Source: Bilabrum cf. latius (Eukaryota). From it: DNA of 64,000 nucleotides. The notes beneath the pieces were generated by a model, which was given only the letters and a program-made list of their open reading frames with translations, did not search any database and was not told where the DNA came from. A program made the position numbers and the translations under genes. Position 1 is the stretch's first letter. The number at the start of each line of letters is the position of its first letter. Positions 38,518-61,000 of the stretch are shown piece after piece. The DNA lies in NCBI GenBank assembly GCA_965178125.1, contig OZ237735.1:2666001-2730000 (forward strand). Reading direction: 5' to 3'.

Positions 38518-41500
38518 TCAGTCAGCCGCGCACATGCCCACCTCGGTGAGGCTGTACACGACCGAGTCCCCGTCGAACTCGAACCGAACTGGCAGCCCAG
38601 CGGACATGAGCGCCTTCCCAGACAGCGTGATGCCCTTCGAGCCGAGCGAGCCGAACTGCCACACCGGCTCCGAGGGGTTGTGCACGATCTGGCCAGTGGC
38701 CGGGGCCCGGCTCAGCGTACCGGGGCAGATCTCCTGCAGCTGGTACCTCTTGTTAGGATTCAGGCCCTTCAGCTTCAGGCGTGGAAACGTCTGGCCCGCG
38801 TCTTTGTTGATGCAGAAGGCCATCACCACGGCTCGATCCGGCCACCTTGCCCTCCTCCGAGGCCTCCTCGCTCGGCTGCTGCCACCGGCAGAGGACCTGT
38901 CCGGGGAAACCACCGATGCCGCCCCCGACCCCGCCCCCGTCTCAGCCGCAGTATCGCCATCGCCGCCACCCACTCTGCCCTCTGGAGAGCCCCCCTCCTC
39001 CTCCTCGCCATCACCGCTCCCGCTCGCAGACCCAGTCCCTGCTCCCTCGCCCGAAGCATCCTCGGGTACCGCAGGCAGCGCATCGCTGAGCAGCTGACCC
39101 TGAGAACCGCCGACTGGCAGGGAAATGCTGCGATCGCTGTCGGCGCGGGCCAGCAGCCCATGCCCATGCCCCGGGCCAGCACCCGCCGGCACAGCCCCGC
39201 CCACCGACGGATGACCGCCTGAGCGCACCTGTCCCGCCGAGTGCCACGCCAAGTCGCTTGGCTCCTGCTCAAACGGCTCTAGCCCGGCCGCCTGCATCGC
39301 GCTGCTCTCTGCCTCTCGCACCATGTGCAGCGCCTCCAATTCCTCGGGTGCAGGGGCCAAGGGGGCCCCCGCATACGTGCTCTCGTCATGTCCTGGTTGC
39401 ACCGAGGAGACGTCGGCGGTGGGGGCAGTGCCCCAGCCCGCGCTGCCCCCGCTCTTCCTCCCCCGCTGCTGCTGCTCCGCCGAGTCGCCGAACGCCCCGA
39501 TGTCGAGCCCGAGGTCTCCACCGGATGAAGCGCCGTCGCTCTCTGCGCCGTCCGCGCCCTTGCTCTCTCCAGCTCGGGTGACGTGCGGGCTCGGCATGGC
39601 CCTCTGCTGTGACGGAGGCTCGGTGCCCGGGCTCAGCATGCCGCCCATGCCGACAGGTGGTGACGCGGAGTCGCTGCCTGCCACAGTAGAGGGGTGTGGC
39701 GAGCGCTTCTGTCCACCCGCTGGTGTTTTGCCGCCGTGGCCGTTGGACTGCTGGCCTGCCATCGCACCGGACTTGCCCGTGCCCCGAAACAGCTTGAGTC
39801 GTCCCGAGTTGGGCGGCCGGTCACCGACCGCGGTGGAAGCGGCCTTGACGGCTTTGGCGACCGTGCCTTGGCCGGCTGCGTCTGCAGCAACTGCCGGGGG
39901 CGAGGCAGACAGCCGCCCAGGGAGCTCCACGTCAACCACGGACCCGTCCGCGTCAGGCCTGGCCGCCCACACGCCCTCCGCGACAGTGTCCCTCCACTCG
40001 TCGTAAAAGTGCTGCAGCCGGGTTGCGCGCTCCAGCTCCCTGCCCTCCGCGACGAACATCCAGGCGGCGGTCTTGTTCCCCTTGAAGGGGGACCACAGGC
40101 GGTGCTGCCTGCCCCAGTACACGATGGGGCTCAGCTCGTCCCGCAGCCTGATGAACTGCCGCAGCTCCTCGCGCTCCTCCTGCGAGAGCTTGCGGATGTC
40201 CAACTCAAGGCCAAAGGTCCCCGCCAGGGCCACTAGGAAACGGGTCTTGAGGGAGGTCACGCGCAGGGTCTGGTGGTTCGGGACGGTGCTGATGTGCGCG
40301 CCCACAGTAGAGACGGGGTACACCAGGCTGGTGCCGTGCTGGATGGTGAGCCTCGAAATGGCGTCCGTGTTGTCGCTGGCCCAAATTTGCGACGAGTAGT
40401 ACAGCATGCCGGGGTCAAATCGACCGCCTCCGCCGCTGCAAGATTCGATCAGAATGTAGGGGAACCGCTCGTTGAGCTCTCGGAACACGCGATACACGCC
40501 GCGCAGGTGCCTGTAGAAGGTCTCGCCCTAGCGTGCGGGGGGAAGCGCAGCGCTGTACACCTCGCTCAGCGAGCGGTTGCAGTCCCACTTGACGTACCGG
40601 ATGCGCACCGTAGCCAAGATGCTCGTGAGCCGCATCAACACGTAATCTACCACCTCATCGCGGCTGAAGTCCAGCACCAGCTGGTTGCGGCCCTCGGACC
40701 TTCGCCGCCCAGGCACCTGCAGGCACCAGTCGGGGTGCTGCCTGTACAGCTCGCTGCGGACGTTGATCATCTCCGGCTCCACCCAGAGCCCAAAGTGCAC
40801 GTCCATCGCCTCCAGGTCCTCGCCCAGCGCGCGAAGTCCCCGCGGGAACTTCTTCCTGTCCACGTACCAGTCACCGAGAGAGGAGTTGTCGCTGTTGCGC
40901 TCTCCGAACCACCCGTCGTCCACCACAAGCAGGACGGCCTGATCCTCGGGCACCACGCCCCGCGCGTGCTTGGCCAGCTCGAGAATGGACGCGGCGTCGA
41001 TGTCAAAGTAGCACGCCTCCCAGGAATTGACGATCACGCTGGGAATGTGGTACCTCCACTGCGGACGAACCAGCCGCTTGCGAATCACGTCATGGAACTG
41101 CTTGGACATGCCACCGAGCCCGTCGGGACTGTACACGCACATGACTTCTGGGGTTTCGAACGTCTGGCCCGGCAGCAGCTGCCACCTGAAGTTGGCGGGA
41201 TGCAGCCCGGCGTTGATGCGGAGCCTCTGCGACTCTGCCACGTCGCACTCCATCCTGAAGTTGCCCGAATACACGAGCGAGAAACCGTACACCTCGCCGC
41301 TCTCCTCCCTCGGCTTCCCCTCGGACACCGCCACGAAGGGGTTGTGCTGGTGGCTCGACTGCCCCCTCCTGCTCTCGATGTACGAGATGCCCTGCACGAG
41401 CTTGCGAGAGACCATCTACCTTTCCCCCGCCCACGCGCCCGACAGGTGGGTGAGGTGGTGGTCAGACGCGTACATGTCGACCGTCATCGACATGAGGCGG

Positions 41501-44084
41501 TTGAGCACCACGCGGCGCCTGCCGATGTTCCGCACCACCGCTTTCCGCACGATCACGTCGCTGTCGGCGGAGACAGTGTACACCAGGTCCACGAAGAGCT
41601 TCATGAAGCGGTCCACCAGGGTCACCACCAAGGTGGTCGTGCGCGCGTCACCCTGCCCAAGCGACCTCAGCCTGGGCATGTCGATGGCACTGCCGGCCGA
41701 GGTCTCGTCGTCGTCTAGGTCCGTGCTGAAACCAGCTGCCATGGCCCCTTCCTCCGGCTTGTGCCTCCCCTAGAAGATCCTGTGCGAGCAGTACTTCATC
41801 GGGCTGATCGAGCTACCGTCCGCGTACCGGACCTCGAACGAGGGCACGCGGTAGTCGCCCGTCCCGCCCTCACTCCATTCCAGCAGCTTCATGTTGTGGC
41901 CCGCAATCACCTCAAACTCCGTCTCTGCGTCCTCACGGGCCGCCTCGGGGGCCAGCTGCAGGCTGGTGGCCACGCTGGGAGACCTGCTCTCCCTCATGCC
42001 CATGTGCGGGGACGCGTCATCCTGCGTGTCCAGCTGCGTGTCGATCTTGCTGGGTTGAGCGCCACCCGAGGGGCCAGGTTGGGGCGTGTCCCCGTGGGCC
42101 ACACGAGCCTTCTGATCCTCGGCGTCTTCTCTCCTCTTGATCTCTTTCTTGTGCTTCTGTAGCTTCTACTCCTGCTCATGGGACGTGGGCGCCTCCTCCT
42201 TGGCAGCCGTTGTTTCGTCCGTCTGGTGAGTCGCGCCCATGGTCACCCTGTGGCCTTCCGAGGGCGGCAGGGGGGCGGCGCTGCCGCCTTTCTCCACATT
42301 ACCAGGCCTGTGTGCCTTCCGTGCCTAGCCATCGGCTGGCAGGTCAACATCGCGCATGGATGGGCGCAGGGGCAGGTGCGGCGGGGGCGCGGTGGCGGCG
42401 TCATCGTCATGCCCTCCAGCAGGACGAGAGCTCGATGCCTCGTTCGGAGAAGCTGCAACGGATGGAAGCTCCCCGTCCGAGATCAAGCGCCGCTCCCTGT
42501 CAGATACGCCTGGCATGCCAGCGGGGTACGTGGCGGGGAGTTCCTCGCTCTCTGAGGGGTTCTGCCGGATCATGTGGGAGGGCAGCTGCGGGAGGGCCTC
42601 GCCGATGGGCGCCGGGAGAGAGGCCGTGACGACTGCGCTGTCCGGCTGCCCGATGCGGTCGATGATTTCCTGCGCCAGCTCCATGGTCGGCGCGTAGGAG
42701 GACGAGTGCGACTCGGAGCCTAATCCCGGCGTGCCATCCCCCTCGCCCTCATCCCCCGCTGGCAAGCCCTGCCTGGCCTGCCCGCCCGGCTGGCTGCTGG
42801 TGTCGCCAGAGGCCTGGCTGTGGGCTGCTCCGAAGTCTGCCCCGGTGTGCACGCTGTTTGCAGCGGCAACTGCCGCTGCAGAAGCTGCGTCCTGCATGAG
42901 CTCGTGCTGGCTGGCGTGCGATCTCGATCTCGAGCGGGCCATGCCGGCCGGTGGGCTCATGCCCGGGGAACCGGGGGGCTGCGGGGGATGGGGAGGGGGC
43001 CGGCTCTAGCACTGGCTGGGGCCTGCGGCTGCTGAGGCTGAGCCCCCTAGCTCTTGCCCTTTCTCTTCGTGTCCCGCCAGAAAGGGCACCCGGGATCCAA
43101 CTCCGGTGGCGGCCCCGGTACCCTTGCCGTGCATCTTGGGCATGAGAGTGCCGGCAGAGGCGGCGTGGTGCATGTCTGAAGCTGCGGGGTGGGGCGGGCT
43201 TGCAGTGCCCTCCTTCTCCCCCTCACCATCACCACCAACCCCCCTTGATGCCCCCACGCTCCCCTACTACTGGCCCCCCTTCACCTCTAGCCCCCTGCTG
43301 CTGACGCGCGCCTGGGACGGTCCTTGCACCTGCGCGTGCCCGTGCCCGTGGCTGTGCCCGCCCCGGAACAGCTCCGACACACTTTTGGACTCATGCACGT
43401 GGGTCCCGCCCGCTTTGAAGCTGGTGCGGTACACGGGCCCGCCGTCTCCTCCCGGCTCACCGGCCTCCAGGAAGCCGTCATCGCCTTCGGGGGGCACCAT
43501 CCGTCCAGAACTGCGTCGCACCCCTGCAGGAACTGGTGGGCCGCGCTCAATGGGGGGAAGCTCTCGAGTGTCCGGCGGTTGATCCAGATGCCCGGCTTTC
43601 AGGCCCCCTTGGGCTGCCTTTCCCAGTCGAAAGCGGTCGGTCGGCAAGAAGGCGGGATCAACAGGCGCTACAGCGCCCCCGCCATGACTACGCGGAGTAA
43701 CGTACTCATCATGCTCTTCTCCGGAATTGGAAGGCTGCGAGGGAGGCCTGGTGCATGCAACTCAGCCAAACTTCGAGATCAATATCAAGATCAGTGGAGT
43801 GACGGCAGGCGCAGTCTGCCTTCTCTCACCTTGGGATCGAACGGCAGAGAAATGTTTGCAAAGCTAAGATAGCCCAAGTTATCTAGATCACCAGAATCTA
43901 CGGTGTTTCCCCAGTACAAGTGTTCAAGCCAACCATGGCCGTCTATGCGGAAGGCATACGAGCTGTCGCTGCTCGATAGGACAAATATCCTCGAACGCTC
44001 CCGAAACACAACCGTCCCCGGCTCCAACGGGGCCATTATATGCTGGAGATCAATCGCTGAGGGCATCTGATTCATATTTGCCAT
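38518..44084 (-). CDS. Alpha-galactosidase, glycoside hydrolase family 36, ~1823 aa with large low-complexity insertions; exons 44084-43830 and 43734-38518
   Basis: SSYAFRID..LEHLYWG, GTGDYRVPS, LSGAWAGER, SSHQHNPF, NSWEACYF, VVDDGWFGERNSD..SLGDW, FGLWVEPEMI, catalytic YVKWD, ESCSGGGGRFD and WASDNTDA. Intron 43829-43735 is GTGAGA..CGCAG. There are 8 in-frame TAGs; the gene ends on TGA. Confidence 0.92.
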
Positions 44085-44547
44085 TTTTCGTTGCAATATG
44101 GACGAGGTGCAATCGCGCCGTCGCCGCGTGGCTTTGCGACCAGTAGTGCCAAGGGAGATTTCCACCAAGTTCTCGCCAATTCAACCCCGTCCTTCGTTTC
44201 AGAGCAAGATTCAGCTTTATGTAGAGTACAAGATTTATAGCACTTCGGTGCAGTCGTATTCAAGGCTGTGCGCTCGCCGTATGTGCCCAGTTGCACTTGA
44301 CCAACTCGGAGCCCGAAGATCTGTCTTGGATCCGCAAGACTGCAGGAACAGTTGCCGCGTCTGTCCCAATTAGCCTCCCCATTCTCGTTCCGACCATCCA
44401 ATAGCCGCAAATTGACGTGTACCAGTCTATAAGCCTCTGTCGTGCGCCGATTTTGAATCTGGGCTTGGAACAAGCGGCGTCTGCATGGTGTGACATTCGG
44501 TTTGGTCTAGTTTCTGCCTTGGTTTGTAGCTTTCAGCCACGGGGGAA

Positions 44548-47277
44548 ATGCACGCTCGCTGTGAAGGACCCTAGTCGATTCAATTCTCTTTCGTGGACTG
44601 GAGCACGGTCATAGTATACTTTGCAGCCATCTTCGTGGTGGCATGGGTGGCAGGCCGTCCCGCTGCTGGCGCGGAGAAAGAGAGCGCCGCCTCCTTTTTC
44701 ATGGCAGAGAGAGGCGTTCTGTGGTTTGGAGTCGGGGGGTCTCTTTTCATGAGCAACATTGGCGCAGAGTCGTTCGTCGGTCTCGCCGGCACTGCCGCAT
44801 CCTCCGGCGTGGCAGTCTCCGTGTTCGAGATGTTCAGCCTGGTCCCGCTCATGATTCTCGCCTTCGTGCTGCTGCCCGTGTTCATGCGGGACCGAGTGTC
44901 CACCACGATGGAGTGGCTCGAGCGGCGGTTCGGTCCGTGCGCCCGGCAGTCGGTGGTCTGCCTCAGCCTGGCCATGTACGTCCTTACCAAGATATCTGCC
45001 ACCCTGTACGCGGGCGGTCTCATCGTGGGGGTGCTCACGGGCGCGGATTCGACCCTCGCCGTGGTGGCTCTGATCGCCGCCACGGTGCTGTACACGGCGC
45101 TCGGGGGTCTCCGCGCGGTGGTGTGGACGGAGATGCTGCAGACCGTGGTGCTGCTCGTGGGAGGGTCGCTCGTCTCCGCGCTGGCAGTGGTCAAAGCTGG
45201 GGGCATGCGGTCGCTCGTTTCGGCCCTGAACTCGGGGAACAGCGACAGTCCCTGGGTGCTGCCCCACTGGGACGAGTGGGGCGACAGAGACGATGCACCC
45301 GGGTCCGAGCCGCTGCCTCCCCCTTCTGACGGGGGTGACATGATGGGCGCCTTCTGCTCGGCTTCGTTCGGGCTGCTGGGCAGGTGTGACCAGGAGTAGC
45401 TAAACCACCCAACGGTTGCAACCACCGGCAACATTTCCGATTCCGAATCCTCCTGTGACTCGCTGCCATGGTCCACACCGACGCCCGAGGAGCTGTACCC
45501 TCCCCAGCCGCTGGCCGCCCCCTACGAGGGCTACGACAGGATGAGCCTTTGGAGACCCGTGCACGACAAGACCTACCCGTGGACGGGTCTCCTGACGGGC
45601 TTCATGGTGATCAGCACGTGGTACTGGGCCTGCGACCAGGTGCTCTCCCAGAGGGCCCTCGCGGCCAGAGACGTGTCCCACGGGGAGCTGGGCGCCATGG
45701 TGGCTGCTGGCTTGAAGCTGCTGCCTGCCTTCCTGCTGGTGCTGCCCGGCATGGCGGCACGGGTGCTGATGGTGCAGGATGGGCTGCTGCCGTGGGCTGT
45801 GCCGAGCGACAGCGTGCCGCCCGCCGTGTTCGATGGGGCATACCCGTGGCTCATCGGGCGGGTGCTGCCGCTTCACCTGCGCGGCATTGTCGTGGCAGCG
45901 GTGCTCGCCAGCCTCATGAGCTCGCTGGCCTCTGTGTTCAACAGCGCGGGGACAGTGGTGGCTGTGGACGTGTACCAGAGGAACGAGTGCTGCCAGAGGG
46001 CTCTGCGGGGGCCCTGCCTGCGCTGCAAGCACCTGAATGAATCGATCCTGGCGAGCGTGCAAGGTGCCTGCGGATGCTAGGGGGGCATTGGAGGTGCTGG
46101 CGGCGGTGCTAGCAAAGGCAGAGGCAGAGGGAATGGGAGTGTTCGGGATCGAAACGCGGCCGTGGATGACACCCTTATGCCTGAGCACCGCGGCACGGAG
46201 CTGGAGGGACTCAAGCAGGGGGTAACCCTCATGCCTGAGCACCGCGGCACGGAGCTGGAGGGACTCAAGCAGGGGGTAAGCAGGGGCGGCGAGGCCACGA
46301 CAGCAGCTGCAACGGCGGCGGTGGCTGCCTCGGGAGGAGCAGCCGCAGCCGCTGCCCCCATGTCGACGGCGGTGCTGCCGCTGGCTGCAACTGTCACGGG
46401 CAGGATGGAGGGGGCTCAGCAGGGGGCCTTGGAGGCAGAGATGGAAGGGGCTGCGCTGCTTCGGCACGAGAGGGGGGGTAGTGCAGCAAGAACCGGGAGC
46501 TTGGCTGGTGATGCAAACGCTGGGCTACCTACATCTACATCTGCATCTGCTGCAAGCCGCCCAGCCGCGGGCACAGCTGCCCCAGGGCCGAGAGCACACG
46601 GGCAGGATGGTGGGACAGCTGGGGACCCGGGCGAGCTGGCTGTAGGGGAGGACGAGGAAGACGTGATCGTCTACGTGGGGCGCATGGCCGTCGTGCTGCT
46701 TGGGGCCATCTCCGTCGCTTGGCTGCCCGTCATCCCTCTCCTGGGCCAGCAGCTGTTCGTATACGTGCAGCTGCCGCCAGCTTTCTTTGCCGGTCCCGTG
46801 GTGGTGCTGTACCTCGGAGGTGCTGTGATGGGGGAGCAGCTGGCGAATGACTGGGGCGCGGTCGCGTGCATTGCCGTGGGGTGGGCCCTGGGCGCGATTC
46901 GGTTCTTGGGCGAGCTCGGCGGATGGACAGAATCGCTCGGTTGGTTCGGGCGCATGCACTACCTTCACTTCGCGGCGGTGAGCGCGGTGATATCACTGGC
47001 AGTGCTTCTCGTTGGCACCGCGGTGTCTGTTGCTGTTGGATGCGATAGGAAAGCCACTGGCCACGAGCGATACGTCCCGTTCGACTGCGGCCTTCGCCAT
47101 AAGGTGCTCCAGCAGCAGCTGAGAGAGGCCGGGGCCGGACATGGCGGTGGTGGTGAAGCAAAGTGTCCCTGCACTATCGGAGCTGAGGATGGAAGCATAG
47201 GAGGAAGCAAAATGGCTTGGGTAGTTGCTGCTGTTGTCGGTGCAGGCTTACTTGCCATGATCATAATCCTTTCATAA
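44548..47277 (+). CDS. Sodium:solute symporter (SLC5/SGLT-type sugar or inositol transporter), ~909 aa
   Basis: FFMAER..WFGVGGSLFMSNIGAESFVGLAG, TTMEWLERRFG, YTALGGLRAVVWTE, WYWACDQVLSQRALAA and MSSLASVFNS, plus a C-terminal TM helix ending IIILS-TAA. In-frame TAGs at 44572, 45397 and 46078. The start is uncertain because an upstream exon is possible. Confidence 0.9.
46171..46279. repeat. 54-bp tandem duplication in the symporter loop (TLMPEHRGTELEGLKQGV x2)
   Basis: Near-identical units start at 46171 and 46225. Confidence 0.95.
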
Positions 47278-47903
47278 TTTGTTTATTATAATGCAGCATG
47301 GTAGTTGTCTTCGTTCATATGTGATTGGACCCGCCTGAGCCCTGCCGACCTCAGAAGCTAAGCAATCACCAGTCGGGCCAGTACTAGCGTGGGTGACCAG
47401 CTGGGAAGCCCCGATGATGAAGGCCTCAACTTTTTGTGCCGTTTCGATCAATTCAACTGCTGCCTTCGCACCGGTGACTGCGATTATTGTGTTAACAATT
47501 GCCTTCATAATGCCTGCGTTCATCGAAGGCAATTTAGGATGCGCTGCAAGATCCAGCCGGCGACCGCAGCTGCATTGCCACGCCTGTTACGACTGGTAAA
47601 CTGTCCCAACGGTAACATGATTCGAATATGGACTAATTGCTTAAAATAGAAAGATAAAAAGTTCGTACAATTTTGCGGGCCGATAACTTGTGGGTGCGAT
47701 CGATGCACCCATCCAGTCCGGCCCGACTTTAACACATGCTTGGCAATAGGCTGCCGAACAGGCCTACGTTAGATCCGATGGGCTGCCTCAGCTTGATTCA
47801 CACTGTGCAATTGTGGTCAAGAAGGAGCCCCAGTCGTCGGGTGTAGAGCCGGTTTGGTACGCGTTATTGCCTACGCTATCTGTATAGCACCGTAGCTTGA
47901 CGG

Positions 47904-48749
47904 TTGCATCACAATCCCACCGTGTGCTTTGCAAAGGCACCGCTAGTGACTGTCACGGAGCTAATACCGTCCTCCAGTCGCTCTGCGCGGCAGAAGGCGT
48001 CCATGGTCTCCGCCGTCTGTGAACGCGCCCGATCGATCGGGGCGAGCAGCGCGGCCGTGGGGGAGACAGGGGTCGCCCTGGGGCGCCGGCCCAAAGAAAA
48101 GTCGCCCCATTTAGTCCTGCGCGGCGTGGGATCGCGACTTCCGGTGCCAGCCGACCGTACCAGCGCCTTGCCGTCTATCGTCGGCTCTGTCGTGTCACCA
48201 CCGGCAGTGCTGATCCTCGCCCTCTGGCTCTCGGAACACCCTGCGTCCTTAAGCGCCAATGCCGATAAATCCAGCCTCAGAGCGGGCTTTAGTCTCCCAC
48301 TACCTCCAGACTACTGCGCAGCCGAAAACATCGTCCCTGGAACCTCACCGCTGACCTTGGCGCTGCTCCCAGCGTCCAGTTCTGCGCTCGAGCCACTGCC
48401 AGTGGCACATTTGGCTCCCATGAGAGGGGTGCTACACGTGCTTTGGGGCGATCTATTCGTCGGTTCGCACATGCCGCTTTCAATGCCTGGGCTGTCTGGT
48501 GCTGCTGTTGTGCTGGACGCATACGTCAGCCTCAAGCTGTCCCCCGCTGGCGCCGCAGCGGAACCTTGGGCCGTGGTGGACAGCGGCCGACGTGCCAGAG
48601 CCAAATGTTCGGCTCGGGCGCGATCGCTGAAATCGCAGCAAATTCAGTTTAAATATTATAATAATCGGCTTGGGCGAAGGCGTCCCGTGCCCGAGACAAA
48701 CTTTCGGCCCGGGCACGGCCGCTGTCCAGCGGGGGACGAGGCTGAGTGA
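47904..48749 (+). CDS. Probable exon of an unidentified plus-strand gene; structure unresolved
   Basis: A 281-codon open frame with globular-looking segments (GVLHVLWGDLFVGSH, AAVVLDAYVSLKL). The opposite-strand ORFs have the S/T/A-rich composition typical of antisense shadows in this window. No convincing start or splice model was found. Confidence 0.3.
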   Translation: MHHNPTVCFAKAPLVTVTELIPSSSRSARQKASMVSAVCERARSIGASSAAVGETGVALGRRPKEKSPHLVLRGVGSRLPVPADRTSALPSIVGSVVSPPAVLILALWLSEHPASLSANADKSSLRAGFSLPLPPDYCAAENIVPGTSPLTLALLPASSSALEPLPVAHLAPMRGVLHVLWGDLFVGSHMPLSMPGLSGAAVVLDAYVSLKLSPAGAAAEPWAVVDSGRRARAKCSARARSLKSQQIQFKYYNNRLGRRRPVPETNFRPGHGRCPAGDEAE

Positions 48750-49520
48750 ATGTCATCATCGATATCATGACGCACCCCGTGGTGGTGTTTGTGGTTTGCG
48801 AGGCGTTGAATGTGCAATGTACTGCTGAACAGGAACCCCTTGAATGCAATCGCGTGCGCCGCCAGGATATGCAGTTGCCAAGCAGACAAGCCCACAGAGG
48901 GCTACCCGCTGACACTGGCAGTGCCTCAGTGCCACCCTGAGTACCGGCCCAGGCGACGGGACAGTGACCGTGGCGCCACCCTTACTGGCCCCGCCTGAGC
49001 GGCAGCACGAATTAAAGTAGTCCCTCCTGGCTGCGGGCCCGGCTCGTTTCCTCCCGTCTGCGTGCTGCTGGCGGACTGGTGGCTAGCCCGAAAAGAACCC
49101 ATTTATGTTAATTTCCGTGCGCCCTTTGCCACCGCTTGATATTCCAGGCAGGTCAGTGCAAACACTGCAGGGGAGTCGCGCCTCGCACCTGCCGCTAGTA
49201 GTGCCTGGATTGCGGTAGGCAGCAGGCAGGGGGCATGAGCGCCTCCACTGACACGCAGGCAGGGGCTTCGCCCGGTGCGAGCACGACGTATGCACCAACT
49301 CACATCTCCTGCAGCTGTGCCAGAAACCCCATGGGCCGTCTCGCAGGCCCACCAGATCCGCGTAAGCGACGGTGCTGAGGAACCGAGTGGCCCGCCGCCG
49401 CCGGGGTGCCACCCTAGCGGCTAGACACAACTTGTGAAGCCCGCTGAGGCACTTTGCGCGCTATGCTTACCAAGTCAGTCATGCCCCGTCTCACAACCTG
49501 ACTGTGGGATAATTTTGGGT

Positions 49521-51338
49521 ATGCAAGCCACGCCAAAACATGCAGAAACATTAGCATAGTTCTTCAAGCTGCTTCGAAGAGCCTGCAGTTCGGAAGTTGT
49601 TGATTGGACGCGTGCGGAGCTAGAGACACTTTTGGGATGGACTGAAAGCATGTCAAAGCTGTCATTTGCAAATGCAAGCTCATTGTCAGTCTTGAACAGG
49701 GCAGCAACCTCAGCTGGCAGCTATGGAGGGCCGGCTCCGCCATGCGAACCGCTGCAGCTCCAAGAAATGCGAACTAGAGCATTAGCTTGCTTGCTGCAGA
49801 ATCCCTTGCGACTGCCAAAAGATTTGCTACTGGCTATTGCAGATCCATCTACGACGCTGCAGGTTTGTGCTGCAGCTGTCCCGGAGCTTGTGCGATGCAA
49901 CCTCAAGCTGCTGAGATCCGTCCAGTCTTTGCAGAGGACTACCCGATCGGCTGGTGGTACATTGCACCTGTCGCAGCAATCCCTTGCTATTGGTGCATTT
50001 ATTAGAATGGTGGCGGAGACTAGTCGGAGCTACCGCGGGTCTAGAGTGTGCCGGCAGAAAGTACCGGCGTGCGCCGCCGCGATAGGCAAGTGCTTGAATG
50101 CCGCGTTTGCGTTAGAGAGGGGTACGCAACGAGATCGCAGGCCATATGCTACCGTACAGGTGGCAATTATGATCCTTCGCGCATCAGCCGAGCCGTGGAA
50201 CCCTGCAGTCGCCGGCACTAGCCTCGCGCAAGCATCGCTGCCCGCCGCCTAGCTGCTGTCATTGGATACTGCCGCCACCGGGGACCAGGAAGACGTGCCT
50301 GCCGATGCGGGGAGGGCAGTGGTAGCGACTGTGGCTGCGTCCACTGACTCGTTGAGTGCAGGCACCGTGGTAGCTGCGTGGTCGGCGCTCTCGAGTGGGT
50401 CCACTGTCTGCCCAGCAAGTGCGCCATCGCTCGCCCAGAGCTGGCTGGCAGTGGACCGGTCAAGGCGGTTCGTGCTCCGGGCCGCTGAGTAGGCAGCCCG
50501 CAGAGAACCAGGCCATGAAGCACAACCCGAGGCTGGTCAGGCCAAGTCGATGGATTCGGTTGCATGGGCAAAGCCATCGACGGGCGCATCGGATGGTCCC
50601 TTGGATCCACATGCAAGTGGCCGCGGTCCACCGGTGGACAAGGTTGAGGCAAGCTTGGATACATTGATGCACTGGCTCATAGAGCGAGGCAACGACGCTC
50701 CTTGGCCAGTGGGCAGGGGCAGAGACCGGGTGGCGAGTCGGTTGCTGGAGCTGGCAGCGGCACTGGGGGCAGGGGCAGGAGCAGGTGACGGGGCAAGGGT
50801 GCAAGGAGGTGGGGCAGGCGCCGGCTGCGAAAAGACGCCAGCGGGCACAGAACCGTTTGGAGCAAGCAAGGGCGGTGAGACGGGGAGAGAAGAAGAGGAA
50901 GAGGAAGAGGAAGAGGAAGAGAGCAGCGCGGCTGTTGACCCGGATGGGCCGGTTTCAGTGCAGCAGTCGTCAGGGGCGAGTGCCGGGGCTCCTCTTCCCC
51001 GCAGCGCCAGGCCGGTTTCAGTGCAGCAGTCGTCAGGGGCGAGTGCTGGGGCTCCTCTTCCCCGCAGCGCCAGGCCGGTTTCAGTGCAGCAGTCGTCAGG
51101 GGCGAGTGCCGGGGCTCCTCTTCCCCGCAGCGCCAGGCCGGTTTCAGTGCAGCAGTCGTCAGGGGCGAGTGCCGGGGCTCCTCGTCCCCGCAGCGCCTGG
51201 CCTGCCAAGGGTCGAATGAGAGCGGCTGGAACCGGCGGTAGCTTGGCCGCAGACGCTGCTCACATTCTTAGCAGCAGCAGTAGCAGCAGCGACAGCAGTG
51301 GTAGCAACAGCGGCAGTGACGATGGCGTGGAATCATGA
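49521..51338 (+). CDS. Hypothetical protein, ~605 aa, with FANCF-like N-terminus
   Basis: ETLA[TAG]FFKLLRRACSSEVVDWTRAELETLLGW..LQEMRTRALACLLQNP recalls the FANCF N-terminal pattern (F..LL......V..W....V...L.W..LL.N). One frame from ATG 49521 to TGA 51336-51338 with TAGs at 49557, 50250 and 50490. The CDS is well supported; the FANCF label is tentative. Confidence 0.5.
50947..51197. repeat. 63-bp tandem repeat x4, coding (PVSVQQSSGASAGAPLPRSAR)
   Basis: Units start at 50947, 51010, 51073 and 51136 and differ by only 1-2 substitutions. Confidence 0.95.
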
Positions 51339-51519
51339 CAATTGTATGCCTGGGTGGGTGTGTTGATCAAGCTGCCGAGCCAATTGCACAAATGCAATCC
51401 GTCCGTGTCTTACCCGTTCAATCCAAGTCAAGTCAAACCCAGCCAAAGCCTTCTGCCGCCCTGCGAAGAGCCAGTGGACCGGACAATCTCTTTGCATAGC
51501 CCCTCCGTCCCCGTCTCTA

Positions 51520-53270
51520 TCAGACCCCGGACCTGTACGCCCCTGCGTCGTCCTCCATGCGCACGGACCCCACCGAGGCAGGGTCCCCCTTGCGACCCGC
51601 CTCGGAGGCGCGCCCGCTGGCGGTGCCACCCCCCCTGCCCACGTCCCTTAGGCCCCCGCCCCGGTGCTGCCCGCGGCCGCCCCCCGCCACTCCCGCCCCC
51701 AAGTCTCCCCCCATCCCGTGCGGCATCTCCACCGCCGATCGGGCCCTCCGCAGAGCCGGAGCCCGTCCCAGAGGAGGACCCCCCCCGTCCGATGCACCCC
51801 CCCCACCAAGGGACCCGAGGGAACCAAGCCTGCCCTTGCCCTGCCTGTGCCCCGCACCCCCCACGGAGGCAGGGTCGGCGCCTCCCGCCTCCACACTCCT
51901 GTCCCTGTCCCTGTCCCTCCCCATCGCCGCCTCTCTCCTCCTCAGATCCGCCTCCTTCTCAGCCAGTCTTCTCTCGCGCCGGGCCACCGCCTCCTCCCTC
52001 TTGCCCACGGCCTCCTCCCGCGTGCGGACCTCCCGGCTGCGCCTAGAGTACCTGACGGCCCACCTGTGTTCCCTGACCAGGGCCCGGCACAGGGGGGCCT
52101 CCCTGCGGATGCCGGGCAGCTTCTCCAGGTCCTCCACGGCCGGTCTCTTGGTGGCATCCATCTGCAGCATCCACCGGATGGCGCGGTGCAGGTCGTCGCT
52201 GTAGCACGAGGGGATGCGGTCGAACTTGCCCGCGTTGATCTTGACGGCCAGGGCCAGGTGGTTCCCGGCGACGAAGGGGGGCTTGTGCGCGCACGCCTCG
52301 TAGATGACGCACCCCAGCGCCCATATGTCGGATTTCTCGTTGTACCGCTGCTCGTTGACCTGCTCGGGGGACATGTACAGAGGGGTGCCCACGTGGGTCC
52401 GGGCCCAGGCAGAGGCAGAGCCCAGCTCCGTGGCCAGCCCGAAGTCTCCGAGCTTCACGTTGCCCTCGGCGTCCAGGAGCACGTTGCCGGGCTTGAGGTC
52501 CCGGTGCAGGATGGGCTTGTGCTTCTGCTTACCGCCTGCACCTGCGCCCGCTCCCCCGGCTGCTGCTGCGGGTGCCGCCGACCCGCCGGCGCCTGGGCCG
52601 CTGCCGTCCGCGGACGCTGGGTCGTCCTGCCCCCTGCGGTGGCACTCCCTGAGGGCAGAGACCATCTGTGCGAACAGTCTCCAGATGCGGGCCTCGTCCA
52701 GGCGCGTGTTCTCCCGCTTGCACCTGCGGATCCAGCCGCCCAGGTCTCCGCCCTGGCAGCACTCCATCACGATGTAGAGCTTTGTGCTGGCCCGGTCGAT
52801 GATGCGATCGTAGTATCGAACAATGAAAGGATGCCTCATTTCGCGCAATAGATTAACCTCGCTGACGACAAGCTGCTTTTCCTTCTCGCTCATCGCCCCG
52901 TAGTCAAGCTCCTTCCACACCAGCACCTGCGCGTTTCAGCAAGTATGCAAGCAAGGGACTTGAGGATAATAAGATAGGTACATTCCTTAGAACCGCAACT
53001 TTACTTGTGGCACCACGCATGATCCCAGACTGACGGCAACCCAGCATGCTGGCGCGAGCTCACCCTGCCGTCCGCCTTGCGGCGAATCCTGGAAACTGTC
53101 CCAAAACTGCCCCGGCCGATAGTTTCTAAAACTTCATATCCTTCTAGCCCCAGAGAACCACCAGCACCCGGCGTAACACCCTCGGTTGCTGCTGACGAAC
53201 GACTCGATGATCTGGCTCGCTTGGCCTGGGAGGGTCGCCCCGACTTTTCTCCTGATGCAATAGACGCCAT
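51520..53270 (-). CDS. NIMA-related Ser/Thr kinase (NEK2/NIMA-like), ~537 aa; exons 53270-53064 and 52926-51520
   Basis: YEVLETIGRGSFGTV..DGR|VLVWKELDYGAMSEKEKQLVVSEVNLLREMRHP, HRDLKPGN, DFGLA, VGTPLYMSPE and SDIWALG, followed by a coiled coil. Intron 53063-52927 is GTGAGC..CGCAG. No TAG codons; the gene ends on TGA. Confidence 0.92.
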
Positions 53271-53470: not shown

Positions 53471-54586
53471 ATGAGGACCGTGGCCGCTACCGTTATCCTT
53501 GGGTGCGTTGCACATGCTGTGGCGGGCTACCGCCACCGCCCCAGCGAGGTGAGAAGGTGGTCAGAAAGCTTGCCAGCGTTCGCAAGATGCGTCGTGGCTG
53601 AACGCATTTCATGCATATATGCAGTCCCCTTCGTTCGGATCGCAAATGCCTATCAACTCTTTACGTCTTTTTAACCGCAGATCAAGCACATGCCTGGCCA
53701 TACCAAGCTTGAGGACTACCATTCCCCGCTGCCGAAGGATTTTATCCCGGATGCGGCGCTGCCCGTCTCTCTGGATTACAGGAACATCAGCGGCGTGCAG
53801 TACACGACGGAGCTGCTGAATCAGCACATCCCAACCTACTGCGGCTCTTGCTGGGCGCACGGCGCCATGTCAAGCCTCGCGGACCGCTGGAAGATCATGA
53901 AGGGCTCCACGACCACCGTTCCTGTCCCCGCCATCCAGGTGATCCTCAACTGCGGCCAGGAGATGGCTGGCAGCTGCGAGGGCGGCTCTGCCACTGGTGC
54001 GTACCAGTGGGTTAAGGAGAACGGCGTGCCCGACATCACGTGCCAGCAGTACAAGGCCACCGACGGCCAGTGCACCCCCGAGAACGTCTGCCGCAACTGC
54101 AACCCCAACACCGGCTGCTTCCCCGTGCCCAAGTCCAACTACACCTCCTGGGGCGTGTCCGAGTACGGGCGCGTGTCCGGCGTGAACGACATGAAGAAGG
54201 AGCTGCTCGCCCGCGGGCCCATCTCGTGCGGCGTGGACGCCATCCCGATCGAGGACTACCACGGGGGCATCATCACAGCGGAGGCAGACTCCATCGACCA
54301 CATCGTCGCAGTGGTGGGCTGGGGCGTTACCGAGGACGGCACCGAATACTGGCACATGCGGAACTCCTGGTGAGGCCCTCCTTTTTTACTTTTTTTTTTT
54401 GCTTGGCCGGACGCTTCTGCATCTTGATTGTTCAGCATGATACCCCTTCCCCATCTGTATCCTTTTCTTTTTTTTGGTCGCAGGGGCACGTACTGGGGCG
54501 AGGAGGGCTGGGCCCGCGTCAAGACGGGGTCCAACGTGATCGGCATCGAGTCCGACTGCTCGTGGGCGGTCCCCACCCGCAGCTGA
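53471..54586 (+). CDS. CTSZ: Cathepsin Z/X-like papain-family cysteine carboxypeptidase, ~289 aa; exons 53471-53548, 53681-54369, 54484-54586
   Basis: Signal peptide; NQHIPTYCGSCWAH with the cathepsin X HIP insertion; DHIVAVVGWG; RNSW|GTYWGEEGW. Introns 53549-53680 and 54370-54483 are GT-AG. The gene ends on TGA. Confidence 0.93.
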
Positions 54587-54994
54587 ACTGAATGCGGATC
54601 GGATCTGATCTGATCTGATCTGGCGACCACAGTTGCTGCTTTTGAATGGGTGCGTGCCGCTGCTTTGTGAGACCGGCTATTCGAGGGCGCCTTTTCGTGC
54701 GCCGCTCTGTCGCTGGCCCCACTCGCGCCGCTCTCCCTCGTGGTGAGCAGGCTGGAGCCGAGGCTCCGGCCGCTCCCGGAGGAAGCGCGCCGCGAGCAGT
54801 GTGCTCCAATCTGCGCTGATTCATACAATTGCTTGTATTTCTAGAATTCTGGTTCAGATCGCGTCGACCCCACCCGCCGGCAAAACTAGATCTATTCGGT
54901 AACCGAATTTCGGTTCCGTTTTTATTGGCGCGGCGCCACACCACGTGACGCGCACAGACGCAACAGTACACACCTCTAAAACAACCGCCAGAGC

Positions 54995-57004
54995 ATGTCA
55001 TTTTTCCTTGGACCGCACCCCCATGTGAAGCCGAAGGAAGGCGCAGATGTAATCAAGGAGGTACGCGCGTACATTATCTCCTCGAAAGAGGCGGAGGAGA
55101 AAGGCGGAGGCGGCGCCGATTGCCACTCCTAGTCGCACGGCCACTGGATCGTGGATACGCCGATCTCAAACCCCAGGTAAGCCTTGTATACGTGCATGCG
55201 TTTCTCACTGGGCATGCTCATCGGCAGCCCTACCTTTCGCTGGATCCTTGCCACTGCACAGCGATCTTTGTGACTCGAAGATTCGCTGCCTAGTATCTAA
55301 TTAATCGCTTGGTGTCAGAGCACGTATCTGTCCCATTTTTCGCTTTCAATACATCGCAGTTCTTACTATGAGGAGCGGAAGGTGAGCAGAAAGTCGTGGG
55401 GCATCGACGCCCTGGGCACAGTGGTTGTGGAGGTCGAGACTGTCTCTGGAAAGACAGGCGTGGGCATTTCGATCGGTGGCGAGCCAGCCTGCTTTATCGT
55501 TGAGAATCATCTGGCTCGGTTTGTTGAGGGCCAGGACCCGCACAACGTGGAGCTGATGTGGGAGCAGATGTGGCGCGGCAGCGTCAACTACGGCCGCAAG
55601 GGCCTCGTGATCCAGGCTCTCTCGGCCGTGGACCTCGCCATCTGGGACGTGCTAGGCAAGATCGCAGGCAAGCCGGTGTACCAGCTGCTGGGCGGCAAGA
55701 CCAAGGACCGCCTCCCCGTGTACGCCACGACGGCCCGCCCGGACCTTGCCAAGAAGCTGGGGTTCGTGGGGGGCAAGTTCCCGCTGCCCTACGGCCCCGC
55801 GGAGGGGGACAAGGGCATGCGCGCGAACATTGAGAGGGTTAAGGCCGTCCGCGAGTCCGTGGGCCCCGACTTTCCCATCATGATCGACTGCTACATGTCC
55901 CTCACGGCCACGTACACGATCGAGCTAGCCCGCCGCATCGACCGCGAGGTGCCCAACGGGGTCAAGTGGATCGAGGAGTTTCTCATGCCCGACGACTACG
56001 AGGGTGAGAAGAAGAATATATCACAATGTTCTCGCTACGATTGAATCGCACTCCATGCCGAGCCGTGCGTTCCTGCTCCAGCTCCTCTTGGAATACCCTT
56101 CACCGTTCCGTGCTCGCAGGCTACGCCGAGGTGAAGCGCCGCGTGTCCACCACCCTGCTGACCACTGGAGAGCACGAGTACACGAGGTACGGCTTCCGCC
56201 AGCTCCTCGAGAAGAAGTGCTGCGACCTGCTGCAGCCGGACATCACATGGTGCGGAGGACTCACGGAGGCAAGAAGGATCGTGGCCCTGGCTGCGGCCTA
56301 TGACATCCCGGTGATCCCGCACGGGTCAAGCGTGTTCAGCTACCACTTGCAGTACGCCTTCAGCAACTGCCCCATGGCCGAGTACCTGATCCTGTCCCCC
56401 AAGGGAGACACCATCGTGCCTCTCTTCGGGGAGCTCTTCACGGACGAGCCTCTGCCGAAGGACGGGTTCATTGATCTGCCCGACCGTCCCGGTGAGATGG
56501 ATGGATGGGACGAATATGAAACGGCCATGCTTGCAACACTTCTGCGATTAGATTCGTGGTCCGATCCCTCCCAGGATTCGGTGGTCGCTGTTCCCTGCTG
56601 CCATGCGCCTGGGATCGACCCACCTGTGCATTCGACTCAACGATCGTTTGAACACTTGCCCGCTGCTTCCCCACCGCTCCCACGGATCCATTTCTCACCC
56701 TCACTTCCCTCCCTGCCTCCCTGCCTCAGGTTTCGGAGTCACGCTCAACCCCGCGATCGGGCTCAAGCGGCCCTACCCTCGCACCTCGCCCACCCCTGCA
56801 GAGGTGGCTGCATCCAAGGCTGCCGCATCGTGCCCGCAGGACGACTGGCTGGGCCGCGCCGCCCGCATCGGCACCGAGGACGTCCCGCTGTCCCCCGAGG
56901 GGTCCGCCGGAGCTTCCGGGGACAGGGCCGAAATCGTGGCGCCCAAGCCAGCCCCTGCCACGGGAGCTGCAACAGGGGGTGCCGCGGCCGGCGCCGGGAA
57001 GTGA
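54995..57004 (+). CDS. L-rhamnonate/L-galactonate dehydratase family (mandelate racemase/enolase superfamily), ~490 aa; exons 54995-55176, 55360-56003, 56120-56491, 56730-57004
   Basis: GGGADCHS[TAG]SHGHWI (RhmD has GADYHDQG..HWI), SRKSWGIDALG, YGRKGL, KFPLPYGP, MIDCYMSL, KWIEE, TGEHEYTRYGF, QPDITWCGG, IPHGSS and PGFGVTLN..LKRPY. Three GT-AG introns; the gene ends on TGA. Confidence 0.9.
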
Positions 57005-57120: not shown

Positions 57121-57810
57121 TCATGTCACCCTACGTGCAGGCACAGGGTCTACTTTCAAGCCACCGGTCAAACCAGCCTTTTCCAGCCGCTCTTGCCTAA
57201 CCTTTCGATCCGCAGCAAGCAATTCCATGGCCTCTTTAGCGCTGTCAACGTATGTGATGGATGCCATGATGGCCTCCGAGATGCCCAGTGAATCTGCCAC
57301 ACCCTACAACGTCTTTTCCCAAGGATCACGGAAGCAGAATATCTTAGGGGCAGTATACTTCCCCATCGAAGCAAGCCCTGCTACGTTCCAAGCCACGCAA
57401 AGCTCGGTGAGGGTACCCATAGTCCCAGGAAGAATCAAGAAAGCATCTGCCTGCTCCACCATGTGGTTGATCCTGTCCAGGATGGACTGCTTCACGACAA
57501 AGCTGGTCAAATATTCATTGCCTCCGAATGGCCGGTGCCGAAACACGCTCGGCACGACCACCCCGATGCACTACCCACCCGCTTCCTTGGCTCCACGAGC
57601 GCTGGCCTCCATAGTGCCCTGATAACCGCCATTGATAACAGTCAGTCCCGCCTTTGCAATTTCAGATCCTGCATCATGCGCTAATTTGTACAAATCGTCG
57701 CCCGGCTTTGCCCAAGATGCTCCAAACAGAGCGACACAGGCGCGAGGGCTTGCCCGCTCGTCGAACGCTAGGTCGGAAGTCGAATCCAATGGCCCGGACG
57801 CAGCTGCCAT
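57121..57810 (-). CDS. LOG / lysine-decarboxylase-like nucleotide phosphoribohydrolase, 229 aa, intronless
   Basis: VALFGAS..LYKLA..G..IA..G..VINGGY.GTMEA.ARGAKEAGG[TAG]CIGV..R..MVEQADAFLILPGTMGTLTEL. TAGs at 57571-57573 and 57304-57306; the gene ends on TGA at 57121-57123. Confidence 0.85.
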
Positions 57811-57873
57811 GGCAATACACTATGATTGGTCGTTGCTAGTCGCGCACCGCCGGCAGACGAAGTCAGGCTGTAA

Positions 57874-57959
57874 AGATTTGAACTGGGGTGACCGATATGC
57901 TTCATCTTCGCGCCGTGAGGCGTGCAGATGAAGCATATCGGTCACCCCAGTTCAAATCT
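57874..57959. repeat. Perfect 34-bp inverted repeat forming a long hairpin
   Basis: agatttgaactggggtgaccgatatgcttcatct (57874-57907) is the exact reverse complement of 57926-57959. The 18-nt spacer pairs further around a GTGA loop. Confidence 0.95.
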
Positions 57960-58014: not shown

Positions 58015-61000
58015 TCATTCCTCGTCGGAGTCTTCTTCCACTTCGATGCCCGTCTAGTGAGACGCACGACTTGCCCTGCCAGTTGCAGCGCCCTTGCTCG
58101 TGCTCTTGCCACTGCTGCTGGCCTGATGCTGATCCACACTGCCAGAGGTGTCCCGGATGTCTGCTGCTAGCTGGTCAAGGGCTCCAGCCACGCTAGAGGA
58201 TGACACCGCAGGCCCCGTTGGCCGCACTGGCGCTCGTGCGTGCGCAGGTGCACGCCGATGGTGCCCGAGTTCGTCGTTCCACTCGCCGGCTGGATGAACC
58301 CTCGCGCGCTGGTTGTGATTGTAGTGCTACGACTCGTAGCGACTCGGAGCGGTACCAGCGAAAACTCTTGTGCCAGAATTTGCCGCAGCAGCACCCGCAC
58401 CTCGTTGAAAACCGCCGCCCCCAAGCGGGTGCAGCGCACTGCGGGCGGTGGCAGACAGTCCCCTGGCGGCCCGGGCCCGCACCCGCTGCAGGATCCGTCG
58501 CTTGGAGGCCACCCGCTCGGCCTCCACCTGCGGGTCGCACACGGGTGCCCCCCCGTGCCAGCGAGGCAGCGCCGCGGGCCGGGTCCCTGGTCGGGAGGGG
58601 TCGGCCCCTGCTCCTGCTGCTCCTGCTGCCCCTGCCCCTGCCCCTGCCCCGCCCACCGTGTGGGAGTGCCTGCACACCCGCAGGCCCGGGATCAGCCCCG
58701 CGAGAATTCCGCGCACACTGCCGATGGTCAGCGGGTTTCGAATCTGCACGAAGGACTTTCGGCCCTCGTCTCTCGCCAGCGATTCACGCCGTCGAGCCCC
58801 CCGCTTGCGTCCCTTCCCCGCGCCCTCGCTCTACTTCTATCTCTTGCTATCTCTCCTTTCTTTGGCCTCCCCCAGGCCCTGCTCGAAGAGAAAGTTGCCG
58901 GTGATCGACTCCACCACCCCGGGTCCGCGGTGCGGGGACACGTGCGCAGTCGCCGCCCACACGTCCCCGTGGAAGGCTCGAAGCGCGGCCAGCAGCATCT
59001 CTGCCTCCAGCGGCGCCACTCCCCACTGGCCCGCCTTGCCCTTCAGCGCGCATGCACCCAGGACGAGGCTCCCCGCGTCTCGGCCGGGTATGTCTCGCTG
59101 CGGGAGCAGAATGGTCCACGGTGGGAGGCGCGAGGCCACCTGCAGAGCCGCTCTCGACCTGGATAGCGGCTCCGTGGGGCCGCTGAATGGCCCGCCCTGC
59201 GCGTCTGTTTGCTGTGAATGCGCCCGCTGCACCATCCTCGAGACCGCCTCGCTGGCCCTCTGCTCTGCCTGCGCCATGGTGGTGTTGGCATGAGAGCCAG
59301 AGCCTGATGCCGACGATGCATGCGCTGGCGTGGGGAATCCCGACAGAGTGTGCCTGTGTCTGGATACGCGCCTCTGGGAAGCTTGGAGCCTGCGAGTGGA
59401 GGAGTCGGAGCGGGATGATACGATTGGGCGAGGAGATACACAAGCCGGTGCCATGCGACCGAGTGTGTCCAAGCGGTGTACCGTTCGAGATTGCGTTGCA
59501 GAGTCAACGGCATGCATCGCCAGTAGCCACGGTCTGGCAGAGTCAACGGCATGCATCGCCAGTAGCCACGGTCTGGCAGAGTCAACGGCATGCATCGCCA
59601 GTAGCCACGGTCTGGCAGAGTCAACGGCATGCATCGCCAGTAGCCACGGTCTGGCGACTCACCTCTGGTAGATCTCCCCGGGAGTAAAGGAAGGGAGCAA
59701 AAAGGCGTGTGACTGCTGCTGCGCCCGGCCAGAGGCACCGAATCGATTCACCGCCAAGGCTGCAAGCACCAGCTCGGAGCCCCACATGAGTAACGCCTAG
59801 GACTGGTCCCTCTTCGCCCTTGCCCTCGCACCTTCCCGCACCTTTCTGTCCGTCTCGGGCACGATCAGAACGCACGGGTTGGACTTGGGTCTGTAATCGG
59901 CCTCGGGGACGCCCCGGCTGGTCGCATCCACGTGGTCTTGGATGGCAGCGGCAGCGACAGGAGGCAGCTGCGAGGTGGAGGTGCAGGAGAGCAGAGTTGC
60001 AACACAAGAATGACCAGTCATCGAGCAGAGACGGGCGCTTGAGTTCAATGAGAAGAAGATGCAGGTATGCGTGGCCTCTGGTGGCCCAACTCACCAGGCC
60101 GAACTCCTTCACGATCGGAGCGAGAGTGAGGCACGAACTCAGGTTCTTTCGCGTGGCGTGGACGTGCACCGGTCGGTATGAAGTCCCGTCCAGCGTGTGT
60201 TTGATTCCCAGCGGGGTCCTCGATAGGTAGCTCACGCTCGCCTGCTGCAGATCGTGGTCGACACCCGGCAGTGACACCCTAGCACCGGGCTGGTTGTTCC
60301 CGCTGGCCTCGCCAGCCGTCCCACTTTCCCCAGGGGAGCGCCCTGCAGATGTGGTCGATGATTCCGCGGCCGGCTGGTCGAGTAGGCCGGCGGCAAGGCA
60401 CGTCCTGTAGGATCGCCTGCGAAGCCGCACTGCAACGTGGTCTCGCACATCTTGCAGGCCCCACAGGCCCGTGGTGGCAAATAAAGACGGCCGCTGTGCC
60501 GCTGGCAGTCTCTGCGCGTTCTCGGATGGGTGGGTCAGAGCCCATGGCCCGTGCGTGTGCAGCGAATCGGCCAGTCGCTCGAGTGCCTATCTCGTCAGCC
60601 TGCCTGCGCGGGAAAAGAAGCTGCGAGGAGCAGCCGCGGCTCCCTTGTCGTCCAGTGCCTGGCCTGCCGCCAGATCGTCCTGCACGGCGGCCGCGATGCC
60701 GTCAAGCCGCCTGGGCACGTCGTCTTCCTGGTCCGAGTCATCGATGGCGCCTCTCTTCCGCTTGCGACTGCCGAGAATGGGGCGAGGCGGGCGCGGTTTG
60801 TCGCCTTTATTGGATGGCTTCTTCGACACTGATGCCCGTTGCACTGCACTCGTCTCAGGGCCAGGACGGTCTTGTACGTCGTCATCGGTACTATCACTGT
60901 CACTGTCACTGTCGCTGTCACCGTCGCTCTCACTCGTCGAGCTCGTGGAGGCCCCGCTGCCTTGCTGGCCGGCTCGATCGCTGCTGGCCTGCATGGCCAC

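Follow-up and report, generated by a model that had tools for sequence, protein, structure and literature searches.

UAG as a glutamine codon and UAA as a rare, probably functional stop in G+C-rich nuclear DNA

The symporter gene, its TAA and the 5S gene behind it

The stretch of DNA analyzed here (64 kilobases, kb, of contig OZ237735.1; hereafter the window, with positions counted from its first letter) has a base composition of 63% G+C and carries a gene for an SGLT-like sodium:solute symporter, which ends on a TAA codon and is followed at a short distance by a 5S ribosomal RNA (rRNA) gene. An initial annotation, made from the sequence of the window, had proposed that UAG is reassigned in this organism, and that UAA is uncoupled from it and still acts as a stop. 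The genetic code of this DNA, and the role of the symporter TAA within it, are the subject of the present analysis. The symporter locus is organized as follows, with open reading frames (ORFs) measured in codons and spacers in nucleotides (nt):

44494-47274, + strand: ORF of the SGLT-like sodium:solute symporter, 927 codons stop to stop, 4 in-frame TAG
47275-47277, + strand: TAA terminator of the symporter, adjoining a hydrophobic C-terminal helix; no other gene end seen in the window is TAA
47278-47306, + strand: A+T-rich spacer (29 nt, 72% A+T) separating the TAA from the 5S gene
47307-47425, + strand: 5S rRNA gene with a T-run behind it (Rfam RF00001, 81.4 bits, E 1e-15)

The symporter ORF matches Pfam family SSF (1.7e-52) and, in the PDB, SGLT1 (7sla, E 2.8e-71, with an alignment through the penultimate helix); alignments to SGLT1 and SGLT2 alike span the helices that precede the last one. 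Translation probably starts at ATG 44548. The initial annotation had placed the TAA at 47275-47277 right after the last transmembrane helix, and both the position and the hydrophobic helix were confirmed; human SGLT1 likewise ends right after its last helix. The same annotation had also described A+T-rich sequence behind the TAA, which is accurate for the 29-nt spacer, but this spacer is short and the 5S gene that lies behind it had been missed. A ribosome reading past 47277 would thus have to cross the 5S gene and would encounter a second in-frame TAA at 47359 and the first TGA at 47794, which amounts to 173 extra codons.

Sequences from related organisms were collected from metagenomes with a 31-base stretch of the 5S gene as DNA pattern. 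This yielded 13 loci, of which 11 contain the identical 119-nt 5S sequence, and a metagenome search with the symporter C-terminus gave no related loci. One of the 13 (L010), from a distant relative, holds an orthologue of the C-terminal half of the symporter (51% identity over 231 residues), in which the conserved EDGSIGG motif is followed by as many residues as in the window, and in the DNA alignment the TAA of the window and a TGA of L010 form one codon column. The 5S gene begins 29 nt downstream of the stop in the window and 28 nt downstream in L010; the spacer is divergent between the two, and the 5S genes are identical except for their last few bases. Gene order is likewise retained, since the symporter orthologue of L010 is followed by the 5S gene and then by the orthologue of the window's next gene (49239-51338). 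On these alignments, the UAA stop of the symporter is positionally homologous to the UGA stop of its orthologue.

A closer relative is represented by the database protein P0241 (302 amino acids, 85% identity), whose C-terminus falls at the same residue as that of the window symporter. In addition, contigs of X7 and X9 match the window to 47262 and again from 47306, and this resumption indicates that the relative in question also has a 5S gene just behind its symporter. Overall, the close relative (85-88% protein identity) is known from contigs of several runs and the distant one from five metagenome records. The neighborhood of symporter and 5S gene is thus kept in three organisms, which implies that the 3' untranslated region of the symporter mRNA is either shorter than 30 nt or overlaps the 5S gene.

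More broadly, the 5S gene is dispersed, with identical copies in short gaps beside different protein genes, 28-133 nt past the stop codon (window, L010, L005 and L008). One further copy occurs in the spacer of a complete ribosomal DNA (rDNA) unit of a relative (L011, 602-6739, - strand), and its strand is that of the 18S (5040-6739) and 28S (602-3784) genes; the 18S gene of this unit is just 1700 nt long, with an unusual first helix.

In-frame TAG, absent TAA and the ends of genes

Codon usage was counted over 15 stop-to-stop coding segments of the window, or 18,899 codons, with a few segments including intron or 5' non-coding codons. The numbers of stop trinucleotides in each frame were:

TAA: in frame 0; +1 frame 38; +2 frame 38
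TAG: in frame 111; +1 frame 124; +2 frame 135
TGA: in frame 0; +1 frame 265; +2 frame 325

In-frame TAG is therefore found at the density of a sense codon (111 per 18,899 codons), while neither TAA nor TGA occurs in frame at all, and the two off-frames together hold 76 TAA and 590 TGA in 37,798 positions. Among glutamine codons in frame, 161 are CAA and 632 are CAG (CAA being 20% of CAA plus CAG), and the initial observation that TAA is missing from roughly 18,000 codons despite the free use of CAA was thus borne out. Were TAA a glutamine codon used at the CAA:CAG ratio, one would expect 28 of them in frame, where none is seen (Poisson probability of zero, 5e-13), and the off-frame density of TAA alone leads to an expectation of ~38.

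ORF lengths respond to the three codons in a similarly distinct way. The longest ORF in the window comprises 749 codons under the standard code, 749 when TAA is taken as sense and 1028 when TGA is, as opposed to 8639 when TAG is read as sense, which also gives ORFs of 1747, 1566, 1459 and 1314 codons. These five largest ORFs (14,725 codons) keep the same lengths when TAA is additionally treated as sense and TGA is left as the sole stop. They are hence bounded by TGA, and for them the count of zero TAA is not circular.

Counts in the relatives omitted two loci with rDNA and spacer ORFs (L009 and L011) as well as sequences present twice (L004, L007 and a portion of L013 that repeats L001). This left 16 coding segments with 11,043 codons, which include 74 in-frame TAG, no TGA and no TAA; internal TAA at conserved glutamine positions elsewhere had been named at the outset as an observation that would speak against the proposed code. 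With 136 CAA and 228 CAG (CAA 37% of the two), 44 in-frame TAA would be expected if TAA coded for glutamine (probability of zero, 7e-20). As in the window, a strong gain in ORF length is obtained only with TAG as sense, from 396 to 1442 codons in L003 and from 211 to 1397 in L005. The related organisms share the code of the window.

The amino acid inserted at UAG is best read from conserved columns, for which the following gene of the window is needed:

38518-43761, - strand: GH36 alpha-galactosidase gene, 1747 codons, 8 in-frame TAG, TGA stop at 38518-38520

This gene matches Pfam Melibiase (1.5e-137) and includes the GH36 N and C domains, to residue 1738. At its residue 1078, an in-frame TAG (40528-40530, - strand) is aligned with glutamine in 118 of 118 homologues. 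An M3 peptidase of a relative (L008) adds ten TAG sites: at residue 736, 116 of 139 homologues have glutamine (background frequency 4.2%), glutamine is the most common residue at 467 (24/91) and the second most common at 977 (43/137), and the other sites fall in variable or poorly occupied columns. Between the window and L010, glutamine stands opposite TAG in two of seven aligned positions, all seven of which lie in poorly conserved stretches. UAG is in frame in these genes and is read as glutamine.

The transcripts bear the same codons. Contigs of X5 have no letter difference from the window, lack four GT..AG introns (53546/53679, 54368/54483, 55173/55357 and 56002/56119) and include one with a loose poly(A) end behind 54843, from which we conclude that X5, despite its label "probably DNA", represents RNA of this organism and that the window is expressed nuclear DNA. 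The window accordingly derives from the nucleus of a G+C-rich eukaryote whose introns are of the GT..AG type and whose mRNAs are polyadenylated. The contig of X5 that spans 39234-42996 shows zero letter differences, five in-frame TAG included, so that RNA editing is not the explanation for these codons. Positions 47339-48005 are left uncovered by X5 contigs, and this uncovered part is not used as evidence.

Some genes, with high G+C at third codon positions, have no in-frame TAG. In the window these are the genes between 51520 and 57004 (NEK kinase, cathepsin X and rhamnonate dehydratase), and in the relatives the aquaporin (L012, 394-1131), MYG1 and DCN1 genes (L013, 2692-3870 and 5369-6079). 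Some of the TAG-free genes with G+C-rich third positions have high RNA contig depth, whereas long low-complexity genes are rich in TAG; UAG thus behaves as a disfavored glutamine codon.

At the ends of the 14 window genes for which a stop could be tallied, we found 13 TGA, one TAA and no TAG. The initial annotation had been right that a single TAA terminator is visible and that no gene ends on TAG, and had counted 12 TGA ends besides the TAA, where the present figure is 13. The relatives contribute 12 tallied ends (11 TGA, one TAA and no TAG), as well as a further TGA end, that of a purple acid phosphatase gene in L008, read beyond these 12. An ORF of the latter gene that ends on TAA was rejected as a gene end, as the TAA is inside a GT..AG intron and the gene continues to TGA. 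In the off-frames, TAA makes up 11% of TAA plus TGA, from which 1.6 TAA ends would be expected among 14, and TAA is therefore not under-used as a stop. By the same off-frame composition, TAG as a stop would end 28% of genes, with a probability of 0.010 for finding none among 14, and of 0.013 for none among the relatives' 12. Frequent terminal TAG, which the initial annotation would have taken as a sign of a context-dependent code, is not seen: of the 26 tallied ends, a small sample, none is TAG.

Several of the TGA ends are anchored by homology up to the C-terminus, namely those of the GH36, proteasome beta-6 and mitochondrial carrier genes in the window, and of MYG1, DCN1 and the symporter orthologue in the metagenome loci. 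For proteasome beta-6, the PDB alignments extend to the very C-terminus of the query as well as of the matched chain.

Alternative codes, known cases and a proposed mechanism

Based on these results, we consider it very probable that this organism uses NCBI translation table 15, in which UAG codes for glutamine and UGA and UAA are stops, with UAA functional. That UAA still terminates is supported by the codon counts, by the TGA of the orthologue in the same column and by the end of P0241, and these observations, together with the relatives' codon usage, uphold both parts of the initial proposal. The G+C richness of the genome explains why almost every gene ends on UGA, and the rarity of UAA as a terminator follows from the same base composition.

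Table 6, in which both UAA and UAG code for glutamine, has been described far more often than table 15 (PMC5304391), and under it in-frame TAA would be missing here through G+C richness alone and the symporter would end elsewhere. TAA is indeed scarce everywhere (76 of 37,798 off-frame positions), but that very density predicts ~38 in-frame TAA in the window, and the 28 and 44 that table 6 predicts for the window and the relatives compare with zero and zero seen (0 of 29,942 codons). Table 6 would also have the window decode a codon that is TGA in the L010 orthologue, and translate a 5S rRNA gene within a 173-codon extension, and we regard it as extremely unlikely. A code in which UAA is unassigned or almost abandoned is slightly easier to entertain, though still improbable: UAA would be neither decoded nor an efficient terminator, UGA would be the sole practical stop, and the symporter TAA would be a tolerated oddity. 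Such a code would fit the presence of TAA at only one of 14 ends in the window and one of 12 in the relatives, the rest being TGA, but composition predicts merely 1.6 of 14, and the symporter TAA is found exactly at the TGA position of the orthologue and at the protein end of the closer relative. We also count against this idea that, to our knowledge, there is no known loss of UAA recognition by eRF1 without decoding of UAA.

Alternatively, UAG could be context-dependent, acting as sense within genes and as a stop near mRNA ends, in the manner of Condylostoma or Blastocrithidia. Several details would be compatible with this: a TAG lies 13 codons ahead of the TGA in the ORF at 58015-59658 and is possibly its true end, the TGA of the NEK gene is followed immediately by TAG, and in-frame TAG are skewed toward 5' halves, with slightly fewer than expected in the last 100 codons. 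Yet none of the 26 ends is a TAG, for which the chance by composition is 0.010 x 0.013, and the homology-anchored proteins listed above (GH36, proteasome beta-6, mitochondrial carrier, MYG1, DCN1 and the symporter orthologue) run to TGA. We therefore consider context dependence very unlikely, only marginally better placed than table 6.

A number of observations weigh against the reading as table 15. There is only one TAA terminator with independent support; that of the relatives, in a Josephin gene (L001, 4646-6130), has a C-terminus unanchored by homology, and the symporter stop of the closer relative is known only by the end residue of P0241, not by codon letters. Most informative TAG sites are variable positions: residues 664 and 782 of GH36 are in variable columns with glutamine in three of 118 homologues each, and the TAG sites of the LOG, SSF and AAA ATPase proteins are in variable columns that give no information on the amino acid. 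In-frame TAG are mildly skewed to the 5' halves of ORFs (Kolmogorov-Smirnov p = 0.005), which may come partly from non-coding 5' ORF extensions, and the depletion in the last 100 codons is not clear (3 TAG vs. 5.5 expected). No credible tRNA gene and no eRF1 gene were found in the 64 kb of the window and 69 kb of metagenome loci. Finally, the database protein P0001 (88% identical to the GH36 protein) ends just before a glutamine that is invariant in 118 of 118 homologues and that is encoded by CAA in the window (40387-40389); this end may be a TAG, a TAA or a contig end, and a TAA would count against table 15. A second protein, P0002 (100% identical over 525 of the 1747 GH36 residues), has glutamine at two of the window's TAG sites and ends before a third. 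The ends of P0001 and P0002 could stem from the code of the gene caller, from contig ends or from strain differences, and neither protein is used as evidence.

The table 15 assignment itself has been described before, in Iotanema spirale and a small number of ciliates. In the fornicate I. spirale, UAG codes for glutamine and UAA continues to serve as the dominant stop (Panek et al., 2017, PMC5304391), the data in that case being a transcriptome; the UAG change is confined to the Iotanema lineage and tied to a change in the GTS motif of eRF1 (PMC9161772). The phyllopharyngean ciliates Hartmannula sinica and Trochilia petrani also use table 15, with 93.5-100% of aligned C-termini on UAA (McGowan et al., 2024, PMC11687900), and UAG is reported as glutamine in Protocruzia tuzeti and as serine in Scotinosphaera (cited in PMC11687900), and as leucine in the rhizarian exLh (PMC5304391, cited in PMC11687900). 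Table 6 is described outside ciliates for ulvophycean green algae, hexamitid diplomonads, Streblomastix and Amoeboaphelidium (PMC11687900, PMC5304391). These papers compile only a small number of nuclear codes that split UAG from UAA, in a single fornicate, rhizarian and green alga and in a few ciliates (PMC5304391, PMC11687900), and a literature search, supplements not covered, gave no other nuclear code with UAG alone as glutamine beyond the cases in PMC5304391, PMC9161772 and PMC11687900. The initial statement that UAA and UAG are nearly always reassigned together thus stands insofar as uncoupling is rare, but I. spirale, H. sinica, T. petrani and P. tuzeti are precedents for it.

Compared to these systems, the window shares its codon table with I. 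spirale as described in PMC5304391, and would share the predicted mechanism (a CUA-anticodon tRNA-Gln and an altered eRF1), but UAA is the dominant stop in that species, whereas TGA is found at 13 of 14 ends here. With Hartmannula, Trochilia and Protocruzia, on the published descriptions, it has in common that UAG alone has passed to glutamine, that UAG is no terminator and that in-frame UAG occurs at conserved glutamines, although the near-exclusive use of UAA at C-termini in the first two contrasts with one TAA in 14 ends here. The 63% G+C, ORFs of up to 26 kb, introns of 100-180 nt and, in a relative, a 5S gene in the rDNA spacer suggest that the window is unlike a ciliate macronucleus. UAG as glutamine in a non-ciliate nuclear genome is a trait shared with the table 6 organisms covered by these papers, but here UAA is undecoded and ends a gene. 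Reassignment of UAG with UAA left as a stop is likewise shared with exLh and Scotinosphaera as cited, but the amino acid here is glutamine (118/118 and 116/139 columns). The present case differs in the high G+C content of its genome, with UGA as the working stop and UAA as a rare one.

The mechanism put forward in the initial annotation is also the one for which the papers on these precedents argue. In it, a tRNA-Gln with anticodon CUA would read UAG and would form no pairing with UAA, on general decoding knowledge and as argued in PMC5304391; a tRNA with anticodon UUA would be absent, and the recognition by eRF1 of G at the third stop-codon position would be lost or weakened. The same source holds that only a CUA anticodon reads UAG without UAA and that a change in eRF1 is required, and lists GTS, NIKS and YxCxxxF as the motifs of the eRF1 N-domain concerned with the third stop-codon base (PMC5304391).

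Codes that split UAG from UAA are natural test cases of how eRF1 distinguishes a third-position G from an A and of how CUA suppressor tRNAs become fixed. For this organism, genomic DNA and RNA sequences are both available, as are sequences of at least two relatives that stand at different distances from it. With a base composition opposite to that of the known cases and UGA as main stop, the effect of the code change becomes separable from that of stop usage. It is possible, if somewhat doubtful, that the window organism and its close and distant relatives form an undescribed G+C-rich clade that acquired UAG as glutamine independently of Iotanema and the ciliates, and that theirs would be the first such code with UGA as the working stop and UAA at its compositional floor. 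On the practical side, gene callers set to the standard code break genes at each in-frame TAG, and annotation of this genome therefore needs table 15.

Other genes of the window

Beyond the symporter locus and the GH36 gene, the following genes and ORFs were identified, among them several for proteins common in eukaryotes:

1-3942, - strand: ORF of at least 1314 codons, 3' end beyond the window, 11 in-frame TAG, no stop visible
3802-8502, + strand: ORF of 1566 codons, 8 in-frame TAG, TGA stop
8619-9698, - strand: mitochondrial carrier gene, last exon (Pfam Mito_carr, 1.3e-46), TGA at 8619-8621
9933-10691, - strand: proteasome beta-6 (PSMB1-type) gene (Pfam Proteasome, 3.2e-36), TGA at 9933-9935
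11250-11922, + strand: Rpb7-like gene, two exons seen, exon join inferred (Pfam SHS2_Rpb7-N, 2.4e-09), TAG at 11348-11350, TGA at 11920-11922
12024-37943, - strand: giant ORF of 8639 codons, 61 in-frame TAG, no TAA or TGA inside, TGA stop at 12024-12026
49239-51338, + strand: ORF of 699 codons, 4 in-frame TAG, TGA stop, with an orthologue adjoining the symporter orthologue in L010
51520-53300, - strand: NEK-type kinase gene, two exons (Pfam Pkinase, 2.8e-48), TGA at 51520-51522
53675-54843, + strand: cathepsin X-like gene (Pfam Peptidase_C1, 1.4e-32), intron 54369-54482, TGA at 54584-54586, poly(A) after 54843
55357-57004, + strand: L-rhamnonate dehydratase-like gene, several exons, last-exon join inferred (Pfam MR_MLE_N/C; PDB 3fxg, E 2e-42), TGA at 57002-57004
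57121-57951, - strand: LOG-family gene (PDB LOG proteins, E 4e-18), 3 in-frame TAG, TGA at 57121-57123
58015-59658, - strand: ORF of 547 codons, 4 in-frame TAG, one of them 13 codons before the end, TGA stop
59621-64000, - strand: ORF of at least 1459 codons, 5' end beyond the window, 7 in-frame TAG, TGA at 59621-59623

The giant ORF is intronless with long low-complexity stretches, and a Pfam search of both its halves gave no family. A tRNA-Ala(GGC) predicted within it by ARAGORN (16201-16274, - strand) is probably false, with no Rfam match at the gathering threshold. The database proteins P0241 and P0121 (465 amino acids) each cover part of their respective genes. The best PDB match of the proteasome beta-6 protein is 7qve, ahead of human, Plasmodium, kinetoplastid and yeast structures. 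For the NEK gene, whose TGA has a TAG directly after it (51517-51522, - strand), the named homologues are mostly from stramenopiles and animals, at 45-56% identity.

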